Numbered from the stretch's first letter, positions 6,569 through 29,290 are shown. The stretch: 32,000 nucleotides of DNA from Trichodesmium erythraeum IMS101 (GCF_000014265.1 NC_008312.1:3540001-3572000); one strand, 5' to 3'. Translations and numbers: made by a program. The notes: generated from the letters alone by a model not told the origin.

Positions 6569-7588
6569 TCAAAGCATTAAAGGTTTAAATCCATGCTTAA
6601 CAGATAACTTTCCAATCAATTCCATTTTTTCTACAGTAATTAAATTCCGTCCCCAAGAAAAATTAGTATATAGCTTTTCAAATTCCAGTAGCATTGACTC
6701 TGCAAAACAAGCAAATAACTGACGACCTGGTACTTCCATATTGACAATTTTCATAATTTTCCAGTCAATATCAAGAGAATGTTCTACAATTCCACCATTG
6801 AGAACATAGATTCCTTCTTGCTGAACCTTAGTAGCCATGTTTTTAGGATAACCCCCATCAATCAATAAACAGGGTTTCTTTAAAACATTCGGGTTAATTT
6901 CTAAAGCTTCCGGTATACTAGCTACCCAAACTATAATATCAGCCATAGGTAAAGCTGAATTTAATTCTAATATTTTGCCTCGCTTTAATTCCTTTTGCAG
7001 AGCATTAAGCCTCTCTTGTTTACGAGCTATCAACAACAACTCTTCTACTTCTGTCTTAGTATTCAACCAGCGACATACTGCGCTACCAATATCACCAGTT
7101 GCTCCACATACTGCCACTGTTGCTTTTGATAAATCAATTCCTAACTTTTGTGCCCCTTGTTCCACTTGCTGACAGACAATATAAGCAGTGTGAGTATTGC
7201 CAGTAGTAAAACGTTTAAATTCCAATGTAATGTTCCGAATTTGCTTAAACTTCTGCAAATTAAAATTCTCAAAAACAATTGATGAAAACCCACCCAAAGC
7301 AGTTATATCAATACCATGCTTCTGAGCATGGGCCATAGCATTCATTATCTTACGAGTAGCTGCTTTAATTCTGCTAGAGGCTAGCATTTCTGGGAGAAAA
7401 CAAGATTCTACATACTTGCCTTCAATTTTCTGACCCGTAATACTTGTTACTTTGATTGTATCGACTATTTGAGGAGGAGCACTACACCAGAAGTCAAGAC
7501 CTTGATCTGCATATTCTGGATATCCTAAATCTCTTGCTACAGATTGGGCGTGTTCTAAGTTAGTTAGATGACCAATTAGACCAAACAT
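6569..7588 (-). CDS. aar: Long-chain acyl-[acyl-carrier-protein] reductase (alkane biosynthesis)
   Basis: 339 aa, collinear with the characterised cyanobacterial AAR. Matching segments include [42 protein letters not shown], the Rossmann motif [23 protein letters not shown] and [13 protein letters not shown]. It lies immediately downstream of ado on the same strand, which is the canonical arrangement. Confidence 0.96.
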
Positions 7589-8048
7589 TAAAATTGTAAG
7601 TTTTGATTATTAGTAAGTTATTGTTGATGGTATGTGGAAATTAGAGTGGAATTTGTGTATCTCAATAAAATTGGAAATTAGCAAGTATCATTTTTACTAT
7701 GAAAAATTTTTTTATTAAATTCTATACCATTAGTCATTATGATACTATTTTGCTAATATTTTTTGACAATTCACAGTAAAAGTTTATCTAGTTACAACGT
7801 CTCTCCCAATGTCTACGAGAAAACCTTATAAAGGCTTTTACTAGTTATCTTCCCTTGTTTATCAATTCAGCAGAGGTAAACACATTGCTTAACTAGATGA
7901 GCGGTAACTTATCAGGCATAAGGCCACTTACTGGCCTCATATACAAGCACCCTTAACTAATTAATTTCTCGAACTTTAGCATAATTAGTAGCTTTGGAAC
8001 CAAAACTATTAATCCCATTCTAATTTCCACATTATTAATTAAAATTAA

Positions 8049-8804
8049 CTATGCAGCAATCAGACCATAAGCTGACATCCGCATAATTTCTCCAGTAGTA
8101 AAACCAATATTGTTTAGAGCTTCACCATAAGCAATCATAAAATCCTCAATTAATGCTTCTTTTTCCATCTCCAAAGTCTTAGCATCTTTCTCTACCTGGT
8201 TTAGCATTTTCCATACTAGAGGCAAGTTTTGGCGATTTGCTTTTTGTAGCTCTTGTTTAGAGTCTTCAAAATATTCTTTTAGCCATACTTCACCAAAGTT
8301 GAGGTGACTATATTCATCTTTGACCACACTTTCAGTAATTTTACGAGCAAAGGGGTCAGCCACAGGTATATAAATATTGTATGCTGCGATCGCGAAGCAT
8401 TCAATAATTAGAGATTGAATTAACAAACAAGTTACCACATTCCCTGTAGCTGCTGCTGTTTGGAAATTTTCATGAAGTGGCTCAAAGAACTTTTTGGCAA
8501 ACTCCATATCAGGTGTCACATGAAGATTCCGACCGCAAGCTTCAAAGCCTTTTTTGTGACGATTTTCCATTTTTGATAGCTTAATCAGCTCATCCTTTTC
8601 ATCTGGAAGCATTTCGGCAAGTTTAATATAATTTTTATAAGCTTCTTGCTCTCCTTCAATTACTATTGCATTGATTCGGCTATAGGCATCTTTGTAAGTT
8701 TCAGTTTCAAAGTTTATTTGATCTCCTTCACTTTGAGACTTCACTTTTTCTAGTTTAGTTTCACTTTGAGAATCCATAGTAGGAATTATTTCAAGCTTTG
8801 GCAT
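8049..8804 (-). CDS. ado: Aldehyde-deformylating oxygenase (alkane biosynthesis)
   Basis: Di-iron ferritin-like protein with [57 protein letters not shown] and [11 protein letters not shown] place the start at ATG 8804 (MPKLE, as in the MPQLE start of characterised ADOs). A GGAG lies about 9 nt upstream. The 8837 start in the ORF track adds 11 residues with no support. Confidence 0.95.
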
Positions 8805-9170
8805 GTTAGTTATCTCCTCATCACAAAATAGCTTCAACAGGGTAAAGAAAAATACTTTATTAATCTTAACTTAGCTTATAGTTTACTGTACTTACTTTCT
8901 GGAATAATTGGCTAATATAGCTGTGATTTATCTCTTTCTTGGGCCTAGTTTTTCTGACAACCTCCATTTCTATCAATTTGAGTTTTTGTTTTAGTAAAAA
9001 TACTTAATAATGGAATTATATATCAATCTATTGACATTTTTTTAATTATCAAACAGTTAAGCTTTAGTTTTATTAGTAATTAGCACTTTTAGCATATCTT
9101 CTTTTTTTGTCCATTTTATAAGATATATCCTCATTTAGCACATAATGGCCAATCATTACCATCCTGAACT

Positions 9171-19585: not shown

Positions 19586-20193
19586 AAATCAAAAATAATT
19601 TTTTGAGAATAATTAAATAGGGTTTGTCGAAAAAAAAACTGAAAGTATTTACAAATGAAGCTTTAGCTTTTTTTGTCTGAAAAAGATACAAGCTTTTTGC
19701 TATTATCAGCCTAAAATTATCAATTTTTAAGTTATGAAGAGCAGAAAAATTGAGGTAAAATAATTATGACTACATCCTCTGTAATGTCTATTTATTCTAA
19801 TTATTTGCTGACTACATTCACCCATAAAACTTATTCAGTAAGCTCTAAATTTTCTTGCTCTCTAAACATTCGTTTTTTAATTTAATTTTTTTTTATTTTA
19901 TAGGTATTCTTTAGTAAATTTTAACAATGCTAAAAATATTTAGGTAATTACTCAAATTAGTAAACACTATATGGTTTTATTAGAAAATTTATGAAAAAAA
20001 ACTATAGGGGTTTGGTTATATAAATCCCATTTTATAAATTTCATTTTAACTTTAGTTTAGAGGCAAAACTCTCTTTTCTAAAATGTTGCAACCTATCCTA
20101 GGAAGTATATATACCGTTTCTGATGTTAATGAAGTATAGTTATTTTTCTTTTTTTTTCTATTCTTATTTCCGATTAAAAGCAAATTGTAAAAA

Positions 20194-20213
20194 TACTTAA
20201 TACTACTTAATAC
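20194..20213. repeat. Tandem 10-mer (TACTTAATAC) x2 upstream of the 20276 gene
   Basis: Read directly: TACTTAATAC TACTTAATAC followed by TAAT, about 60 nt upstream of the start codon. Confidence 0.6.
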
Positions 20214-20275
20214 TAATTGAGTAGAATTTTCGTTAAGCTGTAAATCAGTCGCTAGATACATTAAGGTAAAAGTCG

Positions 20276-20788
20276 ATGACAATTATTTCTCCAAATCTAA
20301 AATATAATCAACAACGTTGGCAAACAATAGTTTGTTTAACTCTAGGTTTCTGGTTAAGCGCCTGCATAGTTTTAGACCTAGTAATTATGCCAAGTATGTA
20401 TGCTTCTGGGATGATGAATACACCAGATTTTACAGTAGCAGGTTCAGTAATATTTTCTGTATTTAACCGAGTTGAATTACTTTGTGCCAGCTTAGGTTTA
20501 ACAGGTTTATTAGTGTTAAGTACTAAGGCTAGTAATTTTATTAAAAAGAGTAAAACAGCAATTATTTTTTCTATAATATTATTAGGAATAGTTCTAATTG
20601 ATACCTACGGTTTAACTCCTCAAATGACTGCTTTGGGTATTAATCTAAGTTTATTTGAGTCAGTTAAAGAAGTTCCTGTGGCAATGAACCAAATGCACGG
20701 CGGATACTGGTTATTAGAAATAATTAAATTGGTTATTGGTGCTACTTTATTCGGTTGGTGTTACCGACAACCAACAAAGATAGATTAA
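20276..20788 (+). CDS. Small integral membrane protein (about four TM helices), function unknown
   Basis: 170-aa hydrophobic ORF. Its 3' 264 nt are included in the tandem duplication at 20525-21650. Confidence 0.6.
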   Translation: MTIISPNLKYNQQRWQTIVCLTLGFWLSACIVLDLVIMPSMYASGMMNTPDFTVAGSVIFSVFNRVELLCASLGLTGLLVLSTKASNFIKKSKTAIIFSIILLGIVLIDTYGLTPQMTALGINLSLFESVKEVPVAMNQMHGGYWLLEIIKLVIGATLFGWCYRQPTKID

Positions 20789-20827
20789 TAATTATTTTTA
20801 CCGTGCTAGAAAATAGTCAAAAAAATT

Positions 20828-20887
20828 AGGGTGAGTAAATTTTATTTGAGATCTAATTATCTCAATTAGTAAATATTTACTCACCCT
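20828..20887. terminator. Long stem-loop downstream of the membrane-protein gene (terminator-like)
   Basis: AGGGTGAGTAAAT (20828-20840) pairs perfectly with ATTTACTCACCCT (20875-20887). An inner stem TTGAGAT/ATCTCAA lies in the loop. There is no clear T-run after the stem on the + strand. The run AAAAAAA just upstream would give a T-run for a minus-strand transcript. Confidence 0.4.
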
Positions 20888-21087
20888 ATTAGCTTTAACT
20901 AAAAAAAAGAATAGAAAAATAATAGGTAGTTTGTTTTGTGTAATTGTAGAAGTAGATGAAAAACTCTACTACCCCTGTCGCAAAGAAGCAAGATACTCCT
21001 CATTTTTATTCAACAAAATAATATAATAGACTACCTTTAGAATGGACAACTACTAAATAAGCAACGTCGAAAAAATAATGTTTTATA

Positions 21088-21351
21088 AAGGCTAGTAATT
21101 TTATTAAAAAGAGTAAAACAGCAATTATTTTTTCTATAATATTATTAGGAATAGTTCTAATTGATACCTACGGTTTAACTCCTCAAATGACTGCTTTGGG
21201 TATTAATCTAAGTTTATTTGAGTCAGTTAAAGAAGTTCCTGTGGCAATGAACCAAATGCACGGCGGATACTGGTTATTAGAAATAATTAAATTGGTTATT
21301 GGTGCTACTTTATTCGGTTGGTGTTACCGACAACCAACAAAGATAGATTAA
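21088..21351 (+). pseudogene. Duplicated 3' fragment (last 87 codons plus stop) of the 20276 membrane-protein gene
   Basis: Identical to 20525-20788. It has no in-frame start at its 5' end. The duplicated ATG at 21078 reads MFYKG-stop in another frame. Confidence 0.85.
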
Positions 21352-21390
21352 TAATTATTTTTACCGTGCTAGAAAATAGTCAAAAAAATT

Positions 21391-21450
21391 AGGGTGAGTA
21401 AATTTTATTTGAGATCTAATTATCTCAATTAGTAAATATTTACTCACCCT
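21391..21450. terminator. Second copy of the long stem-loop, within duplication copy 2
   Basis: Identical to 20828-20887 at an offset of 563. Confidence 0.4.
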
Positions 21451-21640
21451 ATTAGCTTTAACTAAAAAAAAGAATAGAAAAATAATAGGTAGTTTGTTTT
21501 GTGTAATGGTAGAAGTAGATGAAAAACTCTACTACCCCTGTCGCAAAGAAGCAAGATACTCCTCATTTTCATTCAACAAAATAATATAATAGACTACCTT
21601 TAGAATGGACAACTACTAAATAATCAACGTCGAAAAAATA

Positions 21641-22236
21641 ATGTTTTATAGTAGATTTACCCTAGAAGAAGTTCTGGCAAATTTTAATCTCAACTTGGTC
21701 GAAAAATTGGGTAAATTTAATCAACTACCAGAAGTTTATCCCAGTAAATTTATTCAAGAAGCTTTAGAATATTATTTACCATTAGCAGTAGCGATCGCTT
21801 CGGAAAAAGCTTGTTCAGAATTTATTATTGCGCCGATATTAGCAGAATTAAAAAAATATCTAATAACCAGATAAGTTTATTTTCAGGGATTGAGTTTAAT
21901 GTTAATCCAGATTTAGGATTAAATGTTTTTTGTGACTTTATTATCAGTTTATCAACTCAGCAAATAGTTCTCAAAGCACCAGTAATAACTTTAGTAGAAG
22001 CTAAAAACGATAACCTGAGAAATGGTTTAGCTCAATGTATGGCAGAAATGCTTGCTGCTCAAATTTTTAATCAAAGCAAAGGCAAAGAAATTCCCAAGAT
22101 TTATGGAGTTATTACTACTGGTAATGCTTGGCAATTTATAGAGTTAGAATCTAAAACAATAGTTATAGATTTAGAGGAATATTCTGTTTATAACTTACCG
22201 AATATTTTAGGAATATTAACCAGTTTTGTTTGTTAG
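21641..22236 (+). pseudogene. Conserved cyanobacterial hypothetical protein with a PD-(D/E)xK-like core, split by a frameshift in an A7 run
   Basis: ORF 21641-21874 (...SEKACSEFIIAPILAELKK) and ORF 21811-22236 (ISNNQISLFSGIEFNVNPDLGLNVFCDFIISLS...VITLVEAKNDNLRNGLAQCMAEMLAAQIFN...YGVITTGNAWQFIEL) together form one protein of a family I recall as widespread in cyanobacteria. The D...EAK motif resembles a PD-(D/E)xK nuclease core. The frames switch by -1 at the run AAAAAAA (21850-21856). One additional A would restore a single ORF. Confidence 0.65.
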
Positions 22237-22882
22237 TATTTAAGCATTTAGTATTTCCTTGTTTTTCTTGTGGCATTAGTTTTTCATAAATTTGATTGTT
22301 AATATACTTATTTACTAGTTTTATTTTTGGCTATTGTAAAAATTATGCGAGAGTAATTTATTTAAGCAAATTCACAACATTAGCATAATTATTTTACCTC
22401 AATGAAATTTTTTTCTATATTTGTTAATTATATCTATTTTTGACTACCTACTCATCTATTATCAGACTTAATTAATGCAATTAAAGATGTAGCGTTCATA
22501 AATAATTGGTAAAAAAAAATTAGGGTTTTAGTCTTCCAATGTCATTTTAACTTAGGTTTTAAAACTTAACTCCTATGATCAAATATTATACTAAGTTCAG
22601 TTATCAAAAACATATTTATTTTAATTCCTTTCAAACCCTTATACCTCCTGTTTGCCCTATAAGTACCTTGCCTTCATAAATATTAATTAGTGTCTCAAAT
22701 AGATTTAATATTAGAAACTATTTCAGATTGCTATAGCAGTGTCTATACTATTAATACAGAACTTTCCATTGTTATAAAGTAAAGCTACAGTAGTAAGATG
22801 CTCACACTACATTATTTTCACTATTTACTGTATACATAATTTGCCAGAAATCTGCTGTAAATTTTCTCTCCTATCAAATTTA

Positions 22883-24298
22883 CTAACCGCAAGAATGTAG
22901 AGACAAATGGGAATTTGCTCCTACTTCATTGGATAAAAAATATAGTTTCAGCAAAGGTAAAAGAATAAAATTGTTTTCTTGTTTTTCTATTAGAGAACGT
23001 CGCTGCAAAGATTTAATTATGTTCAATAAATCTGAAAGTGGTATTTGTAAATTATCTAATAAAGTTGAAATAGCCACTGCTTCAGTTTTAGTTGCTAAGT
23101 GAGAGATTATTTGTTTTTCTAACTCTGATAAACGGGCAAACTGCTGATGTAATAATTCTTTGATATCTGCATCTAAAAATAGGGAGTCATATTGAAATAA
23201 TTCTGAGACGCTCCCAGCAAATAAATCATTAATAGTAGTAGCAATTATATTTAACCAAGTCGGGTTGCCTTGATAAAAATTAATTAGTTTTTGCCCTTGA
23301 GCGTCTACTTCTAGATCTTGGTCTTTGAGAATTTTTATAGCTGCTTCCTCATCTAAACCTTTCAGATGTAATGAGCGAACAGATGTATTTTTACCACTGC
23401 TAATTTCTCTAAGTTTTTCTCTACTAATAATTAAGCAACAACTCTGATGAGAGAGTTCGCCAATAAGTTGGAAAAATTGACTGTAGTTTTCATATTCTGG
23501 CAGGTAATGACTTGCTAGTTTCCTACTGCTAAATATTGTTTGGATGTCATCTAGTATTATCAGGCAACGGTGCTTTCTCAAATTTTCTAGAAGATAGGAA
23601 TTTCCTGAAGTTTCAATAGTCAATTTTTGGTTAGAAATAAATTTAATGAGGTTAGTTTGAATTGTTTTAAGAGGTGGGGAGTCTCGCAGACTTTGCCAAA
23701 TTATATAGTCGAACTTATTTTGAATATTTTTGATTAGTTGGAGAGCTAATGCTGTTTTGCCAATACCAATTATTCCATGGAGAATTACTAATTTTTTTTG
23801 TTCTTGGAGAATCCATTTTTTCAGAGTTTTTATTTCCTGATTTCGACCATAGAATTTTTTATAGTCTGGTGCATCTGATAGGTTTATTTTTGGTCGAGGA
23901 ATAGTCTGGCATTTGTTAATATTTGGCTGAGTCAAATTTTCAGGTTTTATAGTTTCTGAAGAAGGGGAAGTTTCCGGGCAAAAATTTATATTTTTAATTC
24001 CTATAAAGTCTTTTTCTATCTTTGGAGATGAAACTATTGAAAACTGCCATCTTTCAAATGTGGTACGTAGATTAGATTTATTTACTTGTTCTCCAAAAGT
24101 ATCTGAAAAAGTTTTCCATAATTCTGAAGCAACATCCCTGACATGACCGTTAGTGCATTGACATTCTTGAGCTATTTCTGAATATTTTTTACCTTGAAAA
24201 ACACCCTTTAATATAGCTTGTTGTAGGTCTTCTAAATGTTTTCCTGTTTTGTTAAAGATGAGATGGTCAGCTAAATTCAATATTTCTTGGATATCCAT
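22883..24298 (-). CDS. STAND-type P-loop NTPase (NB-ARC-like) with an N-terminal HTH-like domain and no C-terminal repeat sensor
   Basis: 471 aa. The N-terminal roughly 85 aa (LEDLQQAILKGVFQGKKYSEIAQECQCTNGHVRDVASELWKTFSDTFGEQVNKSNLRTTFERW) look like the HTH-type module found at the N-terminus of many cyanobacterial NACHT/NB-ARC-WD40 proteins. It has Walker A GIIGIGKTALA, Walker B CLIILDDIQ, an NB-ARC-like GNPTWLNIIA (GxPLAL-type) motif and a C-terminal winged-helix-like segment. No WD40, TPR or other sensor array follows. Confidence 0.75.
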   Translation of the reverse strand: MDIQEILNLADHLIFNKTGKHLEDLQQAILKGVFQGKKYSEIAQECQCTNGHVRDVASELWKTFSDTFGEQVNKSNLRTTFERWQFSIVSSPKIEKDFIGIKNINFCPETSPSSETIKPENLTQPNINKCQTIPRPKINLSDAPDYKKFYGRNQEIKTLKKWILQEQKKLVILHGIIGIGKTALALQLIKNIQNKFDYIIWQSLRDSPPLKTIQTNLIKFISNQKLTIETSGNSYLLENLRKHRCLIILDDIQTIFSSRKLASHYLPEYENYSQFFQLIGELSHQSCCLIISREKLREISSGKNTSVRSLHLKGLDEEAAIKILKDQDLEVDAQGQKLINFYQGNPTWLNIIATTINDLFAGSVSELFQYDSLFLDADIKELLHQQFARLSELEKQIISHLATKTEAVAISTLLDNLQIPLSDLLNIIKSLQRRSLIEKQENNFILLPLLKLYFLSNEVGANSHLSLHSCG

Positions 24299-24499
24299 AG
24301 ATGAGGTTAGGTAAAGGACTTTATATGTATTGTAGTCCTACATTATCCTACACAACAATTTTTTTTACCAAATTTAATGATAAAAGAGACTTTTTTTCAT
24401 CATTAAATTCCCTACTTATGCCGACTATTCCCTACTGACAATAGAAAAAAAATGTGATGCAATAGAAGGATAGTAAAAATTAAGTCACTAGGTTGATTT
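24299..24499. promoter_or_regulatory. Divergent intergenic control region between the STAND gene and the small-protein operon
   Basis: The 201-bp spacer contains four repeat features. (1) A perfect 11-bp inverted repeat, AATTTAATGAT (24371-24381) and ATCATTAAATT (24399-24409). (2) A direct repeat ATTCCCTACT at 24407-24416 and 24427-24436, spaced 20 bp start to start. (3) An inverted repeat AGGACT (24315-24320) and AGTCCT (24334-24339). (4) TCCTACA twice, at about 24336-24352. Promoter elements themselves were not identified with confidence. Confidence 0.35.
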
Positions 24500-25069
24500 A
24501 TGAAAGAAAGGGAATTATCTCGCTTATTAAAAAAACCATTCTATACAGTTATAAAGTATCTACACCAAAAAGATTTACCAAAAGAAGTAAAAAATGCTTT
24601 GAACGATATTTTTAATGTTTTAGAAATTGAACCAGACAATGATATTTCTAACAGACAGGAAGTTTATCAAAGCATTGCCAAATTTCTGCAAAAAAACTTG
24701 CCTCAACCAAGATCTGAACCTTTAAGAATTACCCAATGTTTAAGAATTACCTATAAACTTTGTAGAGAGTTTGACGAACAATTAGTAAAAGAAGGATCAG
24801 AAATTAACCCGACACTTCTCGAAGCCGCAAAAGCATTAATTTTAACTATTAAAGTAAATTATGAACCTAAAGTAAATTATGAACCTGAATTACTCAAAGT
24901 TCAAACTTATAATCGTCAAATAGAAATTTATTACATTAAAGAAAACAAACCAATAGTAACAAGAATAGAACAGGAATTAGATAGAGATAGTTTACCTGAA
25001 GATGTACGTTCAGAGTGGTTACGCGAGGGTGAAAAAAAATTAACTTTTAAACTTTATCCAAAGGAGTAA
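24500..25069 (+). CDS. Small-protein family member 1 (soluble, 189 aa), function unknown
   Basis: First gene of the operon, with no TM helix. The C-terminal segment IVTRIEQELDRDSLPEDVRSEWLREGEKKLTF carries the motif shared with the next two genes. It also contains an in-frame 18-bp tandem duplication (KVNYEP x2). Confidence 0.6.
   Translation: MKERELSRLLKKPFYTVIKYLHQKDLPKEVKNALNDIFNVLEIEPDNDISNRQEVYQSIAKFLQKNLPQPRSEPLRITQCLRITYKLCREFDEQLVKEGSEINPTLLEAAKALILTIKVNYEPKVNYEPELLKVQTYNRQIEIYYIKENKPIVTRIEQELDRDSLPEDVRSEWLREGEKKLTFKLYPKE
24851..24886 (+). repeat. Perfect in-frame 18-bp tandem duplication (AAAGTAAATTATGAACCT x2)
   Basis: Read directly; it encodes KVNYEPKVNYEP inside family member 1. 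Confidence 0.9.
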
Positions 25070-25073
25070 AATT

Positions 25074-25556
25074 ATGCCAATTCCACTATTTATGTGGGCT
25101 ATAGCAGGTGCTTTAGGGGTTTCAGCAACTTTCGCATTAATATTTTGGGATCAAATTTTAGGCTGGGCAGAAGATAGTCTTTTTCCTTGGATTAAAAATA
25201 ATATTCCTTCAATTGAAAGTGCAGTAAGAAAAGCATTTAGTGCTTTAGATAATCAAGCTGTTGATACCCGTAAGATCATTCGCAAAGCCTGGAAAAAGTT
25301 GCGTAAATTTTTGTTAAAGCAAGTAGTAACACTAGAAAGAAAGTCATCAAACAAATGGATAAGAAGAGTTACATCTTGGGTAATTAAAGTTCTCGAGTCT
25401 GGTGAAAAAGTTCCTGTAAAAGTAGAGACAGAAGAGAAAGTTAATTGGGATGAATTACCTGAAGATGTGCGTAAAGAATTTCTCAGCAAAGGAAAAAGTG
25501 AAAGTGAAATTGATGTAACAAAAAATCGCGATGACGAAATGGATATGTCTGCTTAG
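25074..25556 (+). CDS. Small-protein family member 2 (one N-terminal TM helix, 160 aa), function unknown
   Basis: It starts 4 nt after the previous stop, with AAGGAG just upstream. It has the TM helix IPLFMWAIAGALGVSATFALIFW and the C-terminal motif VKVETEEKVNWDELPEDVRKEFLSKGKSE. Confidence 0.65.
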   Translation: MPIPLFMWAIAGALGVSATFALIFWDQILGWAEDSLFPWIKNNIPSIESAVRKAFSALDNQAVDTRKIIRKAWKKLRKFLLKQVVTLERKSSNKWIRRVTSWVIKVLESGEKVPVKVETEEKVNWDELPEDVRKEFLSKGKSESEIDVTKNRDDEMDMSA

Positions 25557-25606
25557 TTAACTAGTATGTTTTGCTCAAAAAAATTAAGTATTTAGGGTAA
25601 AAAAAA

Positions 25607-26053
25607 ATGAATCAAATCAAAATTGACTGGCTTGCCATTTCTATTATTGCAGTTATAGGAGTAGGTATAGGTATCTATTTTTTAACTAAACAAAGTGAAG
25701 CAGAAAATCGCAGGAATATTGATAGCTGGTTTGAGGAAAAATTATCTATATCATTAGCAGAAAAATTAGGCATACCCAGTCAAGAAATATTACAAACTAT
25801 TCGGGGTATAGCAAATCCTAAAATAATTGCTAGGATTAACGAAATAGTTGATTATGCTAGACTAACTTTTACTAAATTATCATCTTTTAATGATATAGAA
25901 ATTCGTCTAAATTTAGATTACAAAAACGGTACATATTTTTCCGTTGCTAGTAGTTGGAAATGGGATGAACTACCAGAAACAATTAGGTCAGAATTTCTCA
26001 GAAGTGGTAGTAATATTGTGACTCGTCCCTGGAATTTTCCCTGGGATAACTAA
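25607..26053 (+). CDS. Small-protein family member 3 (one N-terminal TM helix, 148 aa), function unknown
   Basis: It has the TM helix WLAISIIAVIGVGIGIYFL and the C-terminal motif YFSVASSWKWDELPETIRSEFLRSGSNI. Confidence 0.65.
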   Translation: MNQIKIDWLAISIIAVIGVGIGIYFLTKQSEAENRRNIDSWFEEKLSISLAEKLGIPSQEILQTIRGIANPKIIARINEIVDYARLTFTKLSSFNDIEIRLNLDYKNGTYFSVASSWKWDELPETIRSEFLRSGSNIVTRPWNFPWDN

Positions 26054-26075
26054 TAGATATAGGAGAATAAATATT

Positions 26076-26405
26076 ATGCGTTGGTTAGTCGCAGTAGGTA
26101 TGTTAGTAGCGGCAGCTGTAGGAACATTAATTGTTGTTAAATTATGGGATGATATACGAGAAATAGTTGCTAAATGGTTACGTCAACAAGGTTTGGCAAA
26201 AAGTGATTTAATGGATGCTTGGGTTAAACTAGATTCAATGGTTGGAACTGTGCGTTCTAGAATCTTTATTAAAACTGAAAAAACAGGGAAAACTATCATA
26301 TCAGAAACTGAATATAATATGAGTGAAATAGATGATGAAGATGTTATAAAGGAACTAGAAAAACAAGGATATTATAAGCGCAAAATTATGGATTTACTTG
26401 ACTAA
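26076..26405 (+). CDS. Small-protein family member 4 (one N-terminal TM helix, 109 aa; divergent), function unknown
   Basis: AGGAG lies 8 nt upstream. It has the TM helix WLVAVGMLVAAAVGTLIVVKLW. The C-terminal part IFIKTEKTGKTIISETEYNMSEIDDEDVIKELEKQG aligns by eye with member 2 (VKVETEEKVNWDELPEDVRKEFLSKG), but the motif is weaker. Confidence 0.55.
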   Translation: MRWLVAVGMLVAAAVGTLIVVKLWDDIREIVAKWLRQQGLAKSDLMDAWVKLDSMVGTVRSRIFIKTEKTGKTIISETEYNMSEIDDEDVIKELEKQGYYKRKIMDLLD

Positions 26406-27193
26406 AAATAAATTAATCTGTAGCCAGGAAAAAAATTTAATAGTCTAAACTTTTAACTAACTACTTAATTTTTCAATATTTAGCAAATTATTATAAGGAG
26501 AATTAATTTATGCCTACAGGATGGGAAAGACAAAAAAGTACAAATACAAAAACAGAGGAAATAAAAACTACAAATATTAACAAACCTCCTCAACAAACTC
26601 CCACCAATAATTCCTCTGATAAAACAACTGAAATAAACAGAATGGAAATGTTTATCCCAGAAGAACCTCAGAGAAGTTTAGACGATCTAATAGTTCCCTC
26701 AACCGTCAAAAATAGAATTGATACAGCACTGAATAGAATTAAATATCACGATATTTTATATTACCAATGGAACTTAAAAAGTATTGACCCCAGAGGTAAA
26801 CGTACCGCAATTAATTTATTTGGGTTACCAGGTACAGGTAAAACTTTTTGTGCAGAAGCGATCGCTCACATTTTAAAGAAAAAAATCATCAAAGTTAACT
26901 ACGCAGAAATTGAGTCTAAATATGTAGGTGAAACCCCAAAAAACATTACCGCAGCTTTTAAAAAAGCCCAAGAAACTGACTCAGTTTTATTCTTTGATGA
27001 AGCTGACTCTATCTTAGGAAAAAGATTAACTAATGTCACCCAAAGTTCCGATCATGGAGTTAATGTTAGTCGTTCCGTAATGTTACTTCAACTAGACAAA
27101 TTTGATGGAGTCGTAATTTTTGCCACGAACCTCGCCAAAAACTATGATGGAGCATTTGTCCGTCGCATTTTAGCACACATTGAATTTGAATTA

Positions 27194-28139
27194 TAGCAAT
27201 CGAAGCAAAGGTTAGGACGTTAACTTAACAGCATAATCAACTCTCAATGCGAAAATTTTCTATTGTTCCTTCTGACTTTCTGACTCGATTTTTAATTGGA
27301 AACCAATAATGTTCTATTTCATTTAAGTCAGGAGAATATGGTGGTAAATATTCAAGCTCACAATTCACTGATTCTATTAATTCTCTAACTTTTTGGGATT
27401 TATGAAAACTTGCATTGTCTAATATTACTAATTGTCCTGTTTTTAATTGTGGCAACAATTTTTCTCTCAACCATTTTTCAAAAACTACACGGTTACAAGA
27501 GCCTTCAAATGTTAATGGAGCAACTAATTTTCCTTCACACAAACCACTTACAATACTTACCCTTAGACTTCTTTTTCCTGACTTTAAATCGTAATATCTT
27601 TTTCCCAATTCATTCCATCCATAACCATAATCTTCTCTATTATCCATACCTGATTCATCTATATACACTAGCTGTTCCGGCCTTTTATCGCGAATTTTGG
27701 CCAGAAATTTCTTTCTTTTGTCTTCATCTCTTTCTCTGTAACCGTAAGTTTTTTTTTCTTGTATAACCAATTTTTTTTAAGGCTTTACTTATAGTGCGAT
27801 CGCTTACCTTATCTGGCCATTCATCAGCCATTTCTTTTTGAGTTTTACTGCCATTAATCTGGGCAAATTTTCTGAATTGTTCTAAGTCTGGTATTTTGGG
27901 ATTATATCCTTTTTGATAACCTGTTTTTGCTTTTATATCCCCAGTTTCTCTTCTTCTATGTAACCAAGTATTGATGGTATTACGACTAATCTTAAATATA
28001 GAACTTACTTGAGTTTTACTCATCCCACCATCAATGGCCTTAATAACTTTTTGTCTTAAGTCATAGCTATAAGGAGAAGGCATAATCTTTCCTAGATAAT
28101 TTTTCGAGCATTATGTCCTAATCTTTGCTTCGACTGCTA
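27194..28139 (-). mobile_element. IS630-family (Tc1/mariner superfamily) insertion sequence, 946 bp
   Basis: Imperfect terminal inverted repeats TAGCAATCGAAGCAAAGGTTAGGAC (27194-27218) and the reverse complement of 28115-28139, TAGCAGTCGAAGCAAAGATTAGGAC (23/25 match). The element is flanked by TA at 27192-27193 and 28140-28141, the target duplication expected for IS630. It encodes the transposase listed below. Confidence 0.9.
27237..28083 (-). CDS. IS630-family DDE transposase in two overlapping frames (orfA 27724-28083, orfB 27237-27770)
   Basis: orfA holds the HTH domains (...SRNTINTWLHRRRETGD...). orfB holds the catalytic residues in VYIDESG, ILDNASFHK and LPPYSPDLNEIEHYW. orfB is in the +1 frame relative to orfA. 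The overlap contains an A9 run on the coding strand (T-run 27749-27757). Losing one A gives the fusion ...IGYTRKKTYGYRERDE... Confidence 0.88.
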
Positions 28140-28685
28140 TACCAGACAAAGAATGTCGCATGAAATTATGGGAACATTTACTGCCAAAAGAAATACCAAC
28201 TACAGAAGATATTAATCTAGAATTGTTAGCAAACGAATCTGAAAACCTCGCTGGAGGTGATATTTTAAATGTTGTAATTTCCGCAGCAAGTCGAGCAGTT
28301 ATCAGAGAAGCAAAAGCTCAAAAAGTTTCCCTTTTTGACTTAGCTGAAGAAATAAAATTTGTGCGAGAAGCAAAGACAAAAATTGGTTCTCCTCACCATC
28401 AAACTAACCCACAAAAAGCCAAAGTTAAAGAGACAATAATAAATCCAGATGATTTATCTCCAGAACTTCGCGATCGCTACAATGAAAACATTTCAAAAAT
28501 AGATAAATCTGAGTCAGATTTTAACAACTAAATAATATACATAAATTTTCATTTTAGCATACAAAAATAGGGAAGTTTCATAGAACATCCCTACAAAATT
28601 TTAGTTGTAAAAATATGATTAATTATTATTAATAAAACATCAAATTTAAAATCCCAGAAAATATTACTTAAAACAAAACCTAAAC

Positions 28686-28985
28686 CTAACTATCTTCAGA
28701 CTCCCCTGACTTCTCCTCACCAGACAATAAAAGACGAAGACCCATAAAAGCAAATCCAGTTGCAGCAGTAATTTTTACTATATTTGTTGGTAAAATTTCT
28801 GCCATTCCTTGCCCTACTAAAACTCCTAAAAAACTCGTTAATAATAGAGCAGATGCAGTACCTAAAAATACTGCTTGGGGAAACTTTGAAGACCCACCCA
28901 GAGCGATCGCCGCCAATTGACTTTTATCTCCTAATTCAGATAAGAAAACTGCAATAAAACTTAAACCTAAAAGTTGCCAATCCAT
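28686..28985 (-). CDS. UPF0016/GDT1 (TMEM165, Mnx/PAM71-like) family half-size membrane protein
   Basis: 99 aa with three TM helices and one E-x-G-D-K-(S/T) signature (SELGDKSQLAAIAL). Confidence 0.8.
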   Translation of the reverse strand: MDWQLLGLSFIAVFLSELGDKSQLAAIALGGSSKFPQAVFLGTASALLLTSFLGVLVGQGMAEILPTNIVKITAATGFAFMGLRLLLSGEEKSGESEDS

Positions 28986-29290
28986 AGTTAATTAATAAAC
29001 CAAAAAATTAGAATAAACCAGAAAGAATAAAAAAATTAATCCCATAAAATTTTCACTCATAAATATAGTATATTAAACTAGTAAACTTCATCTCAATCAG
29101 GTACACTAATCTCTAGTAAAATGCCCCTACCACTTACTCCTAAATTTAACTAACTAAAAAAAGAAATTCTACACTTTAACAGCTAAAAACTCATTCTTTT
29201 CTCAACATTAATGCGACCAATAATTTTCTGTAAATACTTATCAGAAATTCCATATTCTTAATCCTGATAACTGAAATAATACATAATTTA

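Follow-up and report, generated by a model that had tools for sequence, protein, structure and literature searches.

In bacterial gasdermin operons, a membrane effector is found together with a CHAT or trypsin-like protease, often linked to a STAND protein. Transcription regulators that join a helix-turn-helix (HTH) domain to a STAND module are represented by the MalT/LAL and AfsR/SARP types, and the Iet defence system reportedly consists of an AAA+ ATPase, IetA, and an S8 protease, IetS. The conflict systems of Kaur et al., in the parts of the two papers drawn on here (PMC7159879, PMC8195603), centre on MoxR-type AAA+ ATPases with vWA, on GTPases, or on a double FtsH-type ATPase plus MoxR-vWA. 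Here we analyse a locus in a stretch of 32,000 nucleotides (nt) of Trichodesmium erythraeum IMS101 (GCF_000014265.1 NC_008312.1:3540001-3572000; hereafter the window), in which genes for four small proteins, S1 to S4, are followed by the gene of an AAA+ ATPase and are read divergently from the gene of an HTH-NB-ARC STAND NTPase. The five co-oriented genes constitute a cassette that is conserved across phyla and has not been named before. It is probably a hitherto unrecognised module for defence or cell death in bacteria. Judged from the comparisons below, the cassette would be a membrane-associated machine that provides STAND/caspase-type conflict systems with an effector or adaptor arm. In Trichodesmium it would be controlled by the HTH-STAND protein, and in IMS101 it would have been disabled by an IS630 insertion; we put the probability of this reading at roughly 0.55.

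The first-pass annotation of the window, made from the DNA alone, had recognised no named system in this gene set, and no annotated system with this architecture was found. RefSeq calls its parts 'hypothetical' or 'ATP-binding protein', and Tery_2294 to Tery_2297 are annotated as hypothetical proteins or 'AAA ATPase, central region'. A literature search for the cassette and its locus tags found no published description. In the passages of Kaur et al. 2020/2021 that were searched (PMC7159879, PMC8195603), neither the four S families nor the cassette is described.

More than 100 loci were assembled from contig look-ups and two collection scans, and their gene order was read with family hidden Markov models (HMMs); individual loci are cited by number (L001 and the like). 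The order S1-S2-(extra S2)-(S3)-S4-AAA was found in Okeania, Dapis and other Microcoleaceae, in Nostoc FACHB-973, in Dolichospermum, in a Calothrix-like genome, in Desulfatirhabdium butyrativorans and in a metagenome-assembled genome (MAG) of Thermoanaerobaculia. Cassettes occur in at least four phyla, Cyanobacteriota, Desulfobacterota, Acidobacteriota and Actinomycetota. Chromosomes and plasmids both carry them, among the plasmids Nostoc flagelliforme pNFSY04 and a Streptomyces linear plasmid (L112) with a minimal S1-S2-AAA operon. Homologues are not scattered: wherever the flanking DNA of a close homologue of S2 or the AAA+ protein is long enough, it shows the order S1-S2-(S3)-S4-AAA, and so do all metagenome ATPase homologues of at least 56% identity for which upstream sequence is available. 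Among close homologues, S2 genes and the AAA+ gene co-occur completely, in both directions. The five genes very probably form one conserved functional unit.

The four small proteins could be matched to no characterised family. Searches of S1-S4 against Pfam, NCBIfam, PADLOC and PHROGs returned sub-threshold noise alone (EAP30, DHX37_C, DUF3887), and profile searches of PDB sequences with S1 and S2 gave de novo helical bundles and similar proteins at E values above 1e-4, all of which were rejected. The weak EAP30 match of S1 (E 0.011) falls short of the cutoff and was not reproduced in any other search. All S2 homologues are unnamed and without a Pfam domain. In the KD19 hydropathy profile, S2, S3 and S4 each have a single N-terminal transmembrane (TM) helix (1.99-2.52), and S1 has no hydrophobic helix (maximum 0.89), in agreement with the earlier reading of one soluble and three TM proteins. 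Lys and Arg are much commoner after the TM helix than before it, and the C-terminal domains are therefore predicted to face the cytoplasm.

The small proteins had been described as paralogous. Shared segments were indeed found by blastp (S1-S2, E 8e-7; S2-S3, E 4e-6; S2-S4, E 0.002) and by hhalign, in which S2 aligned to S1 with 95.5% probability over 50 C-terminal columns, to S3 with 83.6% over 24 columns (segment 'WDELPxxhRSEFL') and to S4 with 46% (E 2e-4) over the N-terminal TM and juxtamembrane helix. They are not recent duplicates, however; as judged from these alignments, S1-S4 are mosaic paralogues of ancient origin, and orthologues of each one were found separately in other phyla. In S1, a helical N-terminal portion is followed by a beta-hairpin and by RDSLPEDVRSEWL (nt 24968-25021), its copy of the shared motif; C88, E90 and D92 are invariant in its family alignment A4, and its orthologues span 4 phyla. 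S2 comprises a TM anchor, a Trp-rich juxtamembrane helix, a helical hairpin, a three-strand meander and a motif helix, WDELPEDVRKEFL (nt 25422-25490). Its AlphaFold2 model, with a predicted local distance difference test (pLDDT) score of 71, shows the TM helix, the helical hairpin and the meander, whose strands are long; the motif forms a short helix. A Foldseek search with this model against PDB and BFVD gave no fold match (best E 0.013-0.02, TM scores about 0.2). S3 carries the motif WDELPETIRSEFL (nt 25949-26020; family alignment A5) and has orthologues in L016 and L017. The N-terminal portion of S4 is S2-like and its C-terminal motif is degenerate (EIDDEDVIKELEKQG; family alignment A6); orthologues were found in Desulfatirhabdium and Thermoanaerobaculia. 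Natural fusions join S1 to S2 (P0251) and S2 to S3 (P0172), which implies that the proteins belong to one complex.

A C-terminal module, a strand followed by 'WDELPxDVRxEF', is common to S1, S2 and S3 and is also carried by the C-terminal tail of the AAA+ protein. The tail segment KVKETIINPDDLSPELRDRYNEN (nt 28421-28489) resembles the S-module motif, and its consensus 'VKETxxxPxxL(S/P)PEhRxxY' is kept across phyla (alignment A7). When S2 was compared with the AAA+ profile by hhalign, it aligned exactly to this tail (E 1.8e-4), and the S1 motif pairs there too. An HMM built from the motif segments of S1-S3 alone and run on 5041 open reading frames (ORFs) retrieved all S1-S3, a few other cassette-linked proteins and the ATPase tails, 4 of them at E <1e-3 and 8 at E <0.05; the best unrelated ORF had an E value of 0.33. 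Every complete ATPase of the close clade has the tail, whereas the paralogues linked to MerR/TipAS-type regulators, which are without S genes, do not. Even if the cassette had no defence role, a motif common to an unfoldase and its operon partners would be an unusual recognition principle.

The distant ATPase paralogues, of about 50% identity, fall into two groups. In one, S-like genes are kept, and these are often accompanied by the gene of a Peptidase_M48 protein with an S module at its end. In the other (L045, L061, L079, L091, L113), the ATPase always lies behind a MerR/TipAS-type regulator, with neither S genes nor tail; in a Lactobacillus plasmid, such a TipAS-linked ATPase adjoins an AbiE toxin-antitoxin pair. 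A related AAA+ ATPase also precedes three small genes on Moraxella osloensis plasmid p2 (L114 5010-7431). The first of these encodes a TM protein of 119 amino acids (aa) that begins like S2 and S4, with 'FWKDIRE', and contains the motif 'DIPEHIR'; the set may be a rearranged mini-version of the system in Gammaproteobacteria. Viral contigs and phage genomes held zero S genes and just distant AAA+ relatives.

The ATPase had been taken for a classical-clade AAA+ protein with a disordered N-terminus, and this description stands. Its 5' part matches Pfam AAA (3.7e-26, 92.6 bits) and its 3' part AAA_lid_3 (7.8e-6). Walker A (GLPGTGKT), Walker B (FFDEAD), the pore loop (KYVG) and the arginine fingers (AFVRR) are invariant in alignment A7, in which a conserved N-terminal MPxGW peptide is followed by a disordered linker. 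All class features are present, namely Walker A and B, an aromatic-hydrophobic-Gly pore loop 1, the fingers of the second region of homology (SRH) and the lid, and the nearest solved structures are the D2 domains of VAT/Cdc48/p97 (about 1e-50). The cassette ATPase shares Walker A/B, the YVG pore loop 1, the SRH arginine fingers and the lid with Cdc48/VAT/p97 D2 and with Vps4/Msp1. It differs from them in being a single-domain protein without an N-terminal MIT, double-psi barrel or TM domain, and in having the MPxGW peptide and a tail that mimics the operon partners.

In the model libraries, the ATPase comes nearest to the Iet system. Its best PADLOC match is IetA (3e-28) and the best NCBIfam match IteA (6e-31), and the proteins are of similar size with a common N-terminal 'LDDLI.P' lead-in. 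The score of 107.9 bits, however, falls far below the NF042959 IteA_antiphage cutoff of 510, and four small S genes stand in place of an IetS-type protease gene: no protease domain was detected in the six proteins or in the neighbouring window ORFs that were scanned for a subtilase-type IetS. Membership in Iet was rejected on these grounds, and the IetA match is regarded as general AAA+ similarity.

The likeness to Cdc48 and Vps4 also raises another interpretation, in which the cassette is a housekeeping machine for membrane-protein quality control or remodelling, analogous to FtsH-HflK/C, Msp1 or Vps4-ESCRT-III, whose AAA+ subunit disassembles an anchored scaffold or polymer, with no role in conflict. 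Small single-pass anchored proteins do accompany an unfoldase of the Cdc48/Vps4 class, the C-terminal motif could work as a MIM-type docking peptide, distant cassettes carry M48 (HtpX/Ste24-type) peptidases with the S module, and the window lies in a chromosomal housekeeping region. MIT, Snf7, SPFH and M41 domains, on the other hand, were not detected. A Vps4-ESCRT-III or CdvC-CdvB identity was rejected because there is no MIT or Snf7 match and CdvC scores 97 bits against a cutoff of 650; likewise, FtsH-HflK/C was rejected with 58.6 bits against 600 for FtsH_fam and no Peptidase_M41 or Band_7 match.

The distribution of the cassette also speaks against housekeeping. The S2 family is widespread but patchy: in a library of 1.84 billion proteins, clustering at 50% identity leaves 349 representative clusters for it. 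Copies reside on plasmids and decay frequently: the AAA+ gene is frameshifted in Okeania KiyG1 (L001), an IS605 tnpB lies inside the cassette of Okeania SIO2C9 (L007), S4 is missing and S2 fragmented in Microcoleaceae loci L006-L011, a deletion affects the cassette of Nostoc (L002), and in IMS101 a viable strain carries an insertion sequence (IS) in it. Identity to a Microcoleaceae MAG is 47-62% for the small proteins and 83-87% for STAND and the ATPase, and by this measure the small proteins evolve faster than STAND and AAA+. Plasmid copies, IS insertion, repeated decay and fast divergence of the small proteins amount to accessory behaviour. Since recurring STAND, CHAT and trypsin-like neighbours, as well as TIR and kinase fusions, would also be unexpected of a housekeeping machine, we consider this interpretation quite unlikely.

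Conflict-type proteins, namely STAND switch proteins and caspase-like proteases, are the usual neighbours of the cassette. Adjacent genes encode a TPR+CHAT protein (L014), Trypsin_2+STAND proteins (L024, L025), a CHAT protein (L033), a CHAT+nSTAND1 protein (L028), a NACHT protein (L071) and a divergent CHAT-STAND protein of 2261 aa (L017). On the Streptomyces plasmid, the ATPase stop codon overlaps the start of the gene of a 1197-aa CHAT protein, and a Shedu SduA-domain gene lies near this translationally coupled pair. S1 is fused to a Ser/Thr kinase (Pkinase) inside two cassettes (L037 and L041), S2 modules are fused to TIR_2, TPR, XRE-HTH and, in a weak match, a TRADD-N-like domain, and S modules are also found at the end of Peptidase_M48 proteins. 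A DUF1822+CHAT pair lies upstream of the cassette in L003, L027 and L031; a DUF1822+caspase pair is described in the part of Kaur et al. 2021 that was consulted (PMC8195603). In these three loci (L003 10113-12263; L027 11260-12796; L031 11204-12967), two further conserved genes of about 200 and 310 aa follow the ATPase, with a third of about 203 aa in L003. Pfam gave no significant match for any of these extra genes, which may encode further parts of the DUF1822+CHAT variant. In Okeania and Microcoleaceae (L001 10843-12273; L006, L007, L009), one or two convergent genes for dynamin-like GTPases with DUF697 come after the cassette, but the Trichodesmium window contains none.

In concept, the cassette comes closest to the NTPase/chaperone-regulated conflict systems, with which, as far as the parts considered here describe them (PMC7159879, PMC8195603), the cassette has in common STAND, CHAT/caspase and trypsin-like neighbours and an AAA+ chaperone. 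Fast-evolving non-enzymatic parts, the DUF1822+caspase pair and a frequent occurrence in filamentous cyanobacteria are further points of likeness in those parts, and the one short module common to the partners recalls their 'EAD principle'. The cassette differs from the systems as set out there in that its ATPase is a single classical-clade ring without a vWA partner. For the same reason, the MoxR-vWA ternary system (MoxR, vWA and VMAP/iSTAND) was rejected as an identity, the sole overlap being the HTH_VMAP-M9-type domain of STAND. Gasdermin operons are similar in that a membrane effector candidate has as neighbours CHAT or trypsin-like proteases with a fused or linked STAND, in accessory regions and in filamentous bacteria, but the S proteins are much smaller and already anchored, and an AAA+ unfoldase is obligatory in the cassette. 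Gasdermin membership was rejected, as no S protein has a Pfam match and the Foldseek search of PDB with the S2 model gave none with E <0.01.

The STAND protein itself matches NB-ARC with 44.9 bits against a cutoff of 23.5 (1.1e-11) and NACHT with 1.4e-8. Walker A (GIIGIGKT) and Walker B (LIILDD) were seen in the translation, and residues 391-446 match PADLOC WH_III-A (2.9e-6), so that an NB-ARC domain above the Pfam gathering score is followed by a winged helix, as in the STAND class. Its N-terminus holds a weak sigma-70 region 4-like HTH (Sigma70_r4_2, 0.016), and a near-identical orthologue in L098, an IS-free Trichodesmium allele, has precomputed matches to PF26355 HTH_VMAP-M9 and NB-ARC. 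The protein had been called sensor-less. No repeat family (WD40, TPR, LRR) was matched by Pfam in its 471 aa, and the orthologues have 458-472 aa, but the HTH_VMAP-M9-type domain could be either a DNA binder or a sensor/adaptor. Like the MalT/LAL and AfsR/SARP regulators, the protein fuses an HTH to STAND and is read divergently from a candidate target operon with repeated promoter boxes; it differs from them in that its HTH is N-terminal and sigma-70 region 4-like (VMAP-M9), with putative DNA binding and without a TPR sensor.

The spacer between STAND and S1 had been described as rich in inverted and direct repeats. Two exact direct repeats of TCCCTACT lie at 24409-24416 and 24429-24436, 20 bp apart, and are the sole exact copies in the window; a third CCTACAC box is located further upstream, near 24347. 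A 15-nt inverted repeat is also present (24371-24409), but in alignment A8 it is not maintained as a palindrome in other genera, and it is not proposed as an operator or RNA structure. The spacer has 126 invariant columns among 9 loci of 4 genera, whereas the identity of the S1 proteins is just 43-47%. Conservation of the spacer, the unique TCCCTACT boxes and the HTH_VMAP-M9 domain are consistent with ATP-dependent switching of transcription at the divergent promoter.

It is worth noting that STAND may have no functional relation to the cassette and may act by itself, as a single-gene regulator or sensor whose divergent position reflects vertical inheritance in Microcoleaceae. Orthologues of more than 80% identity adjoin the cassette solely in Trichodesmium, Okeania, Dapis and Microcoleaceae loci (83-88% where divergent), and the cassettes of other phyla are without this protein. 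Against this, an HTH-NB-ARC STAND of 37% identity stands beside the cassette of Nostoc FACHB-973 in a different, convergent arrangement, in which a deletion has fused the STAND 3' end into the ATPase gene. In addition, other STAND/CHAT proteins adjoin the cassette in at least 8 further lineages, and the 201-bp spacer is far better conserved than the neighbouring S1 gene. An unrelated STAND therefore appears rather unlikely. The first-pass annotation, which counted STAND as a member of the module, has to be modified all the same: the five-gene cassette is the unit, and the HTH-STAND is a lineage-specific partner in Microcoleaceae, replaced elsewhere by other STAND/CHAT proteins.

In IMS101, the ATPase gene is interrupted by the IS630 copy that had been noticed in the first reading. 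The transposase matches DDE_3 (5.9e-38) and HTH_Tnp_IS630 (7.9e-14), and the element has 27-nt terminal inverted repeats and a TA target duplication at 27192-27193 and 28140-28141; all features of the IS630 family are thus present. Excision of 948 bp (the 946-bp IS and one TA) restores an in-frame AAA+ ATPase of 357 aa, the junction of which reads HIEFELPDKECR. By blastn, L098 aligns with the window on both sides of exactly that single TA and represents the empty site. IS-free alleles of 92-93% protein identity are found in field Trichodesmium assemblies and in strain 21-75. It is most probable, from this comparison of alleles, that the insertion inactivated the cassette in IMS101. The transposase ORFs on the minus strand, an HTH part (27724-28083) and a DDE part (27237-27770), overlap near a long A/T run, so that the copy may be defective or may be read by programmed frameshifting.

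The disrupted alleles bear on a further possibility, namely that the cassette is a toxin-antitoxin or addiction module in which holin-like small TM toxins are neutralised by the AAA+ protein, perhaps with S1, through extraction or unfolding, the STAND/CHAT neighbours being incidental. Small single-TM proteins are common membrane toxins, the cassette is found on plasmids and beside IS elements, and the S-less TipAS-clade ATPase of the Lactobacillus plasmid adjoins a toxin-antitoxin pair. Nevertheless, both IMS101 and GBRTRLIN201 keep the four S genes intact despite a disrupted ATPase gene, which is hard to square with an essential antitoxin. Five ordered genes across phyla are far beyond the known complexity of toxin-antitoxin modules, and the translational coupling of the Streptomyces CHAT gene to the AAA+ gene does not suit an incidental neighbour. 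We consider an addiction module very unlikely.

In the conflict-system reading that we prefer, S2, S3 and S4 would be anchored in the cytoplasmic membrane by one N-terminal helix each, with their alpha/beta domains in the cytoplasm, where soluble S1 would join them. The subunits would assemble via the shared C-terminal module, beta strands followed by the 'ELPxDhRxEa' helix. A single-ring, Cdc48-D2-like AAA+ unfoldase would dock on this complex by the module copy in its own C-terminal tail and thread or extract subunits, ATP hydrolysis setting or resetting the assembly state. The cassette would thereby be the arm that acts at the membrane, as effector or adaptor, in immunity or programmed cell death. 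The partner in Trichodesmium and related Microcoleaceae, the short HTH-NB-ARC STAND, most likely binds the TCCCTACT repeats, and its oligomerisation would switch the operon on; in strain IMS101, IS630 in the ATPase gene would have disabled the system. The first-pass suggestion of membrane effectors or substrates handled by the unfoldase under STAND control stays conjectural, now backed by comparative context.

Several facts weigh against this reading. The S genes are intact in IMS101 without a functional ATPase gene, which indicates that they are not strongly toxic alone at basal expression. The confidence of the S2 structure is modest (pLDDT 71, other models about 54), and the S1 AlphaFold2 model, made from 5 close sequences, has a pLDDT of 40. 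The S motif and the AAA+ tail match over a short segment, for which the hhalign probability is 48%. No STAND or CHAT protein was found among the screened neighbours in Desulfatirhabdium (L015), the Calothrix-like genome (L016) and N. flagelliforme pNFSY04; filamentous cyanobacteria are rich in STAND and CHAT genes, and the list of neighbours is a raw tally. The TIR and TRADD-N-like fusions are stand-alone genes outside AAA+ cassettes, the TRADD-N match scoring 21.8 bits, under the Pfam cutoff of 23.7. A sigma-70 consensus scan of the spacer found no convincing operon promoter.

A more specific proposal, which we put forward tentatively and at less than even odds, is that S1-S4 and their dedicated Cdc48-like ATPase represent a new cross-phylum, membrane-anchored effector machine, which would execute membrane damage or signalling for STAND/caspase-type sensors and so bring about abortive infection or cell suicide in bacteria, filamentous ones among them. 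Its own copy of the module would let the unfoldase recognise its partners, and in Trichodesmium the cassette would be a candidate part of programmed cell death. This form of death is reported to end Trichodesmium blooms, and a strain-variable module, disrupted in IMS101 and intact in 21-75 and field MAGs, could therefore be of ecological relevance. If the reading is correct, bacterial immunity or cell death gains four protein families not known before, and a classical AAA+ unfoldase is put to a new use there. STAND and CHAT (caspase-like) sensors would then have an output that is anchored in the membrane and is not a gasdermin, which matters for the wiring of apoptosis-like machinery in multicellular bacteria. 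With its IS-free alleles and the four-gene S1-S2-AAA-CHAT operon of the Streptomyces plasmid, the cassette is also compact and directly testable.

The layout of the locus is given in Table 1. The ORF calls reproduce exactly the gene order that had been read from the DNA, with spacers of 4, 50, 22 and 104 nt between the five genes and the 201-bp divergent spacer, and the Shine-Dalgarno-like AGGAG noted ahead of three starts was found 5' of S2, S4 and the AAA+ gene. From the gene order, the STAND gene is probably Tery_2292.

Table 1. Features of the STAND-cassette locus (positions in the window)
Feature	Position	Strand	Description
STAND	22883-24298	-	471 aa; ORF call
Divergent control region	24299-24499		201 bp between STAND and S1
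S1	24500-25069	+	189 aa, soluble subunit
S2 (Tery_2294)	25074-25556	+	160 aa, N-terminal TM anchor
S3 (Tery_2295)	25607-26053	+	148 aa, TM-anchored
S4 (Tery_2296)	26076-26405	+	109 aa, TM-anchored
AAA+ ATPase 5' part (Tery_2297)	26510-27193	+	Pfam AAA; ORF as called 26510-27196
IS630-family element	27194-28139	-	946 bp; transposase in two overlapping ORFs
AAA+ ATPase 3' part	28142-28531	+	lid and C-terminal tail; ORF as called 28160-28531

An Rfam scan of 22000-29000 matched no RNA family. GDT1-family genes lie downstream of the cassette in the window. To its left, L098 aligns to the window solely from 22859 rightwards (window 20000-22858 versus L098 1-1873); the DNA left of the STAND gene thus differs between Trichodesmium strains, and the cassette borders a variable region. 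Two overlapping same-strand ORFs in this part (21641-21874 and 21811-22236; 77 and 141 aa) resemble one frameshifted gene with a D...EAK motif. The split-gene appearance agrees with the first reading, but neither half matches Pfam, and the PD-(D/E)xK label given to it stays tentative. Further left, on the minus strand, ORFs 6569-7588 and 8049-8837 resemble, from their translations, acyl-ACP reductase and aldehyde-deformylating oxygenase of the cyanobacterial alkane pathway, and this pair (6569-8837) is ordinary chromosomal context. The tandem duplication remarked on earlier is a 300-nt direct repeat (20525-20824 and 21088-21387) with a start-to-start distance of 563 nt, which overlaps the 3' end of a DUF4149-like ORF (20276-20788). 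Its two copies are perfect, which indicates a very recent event.

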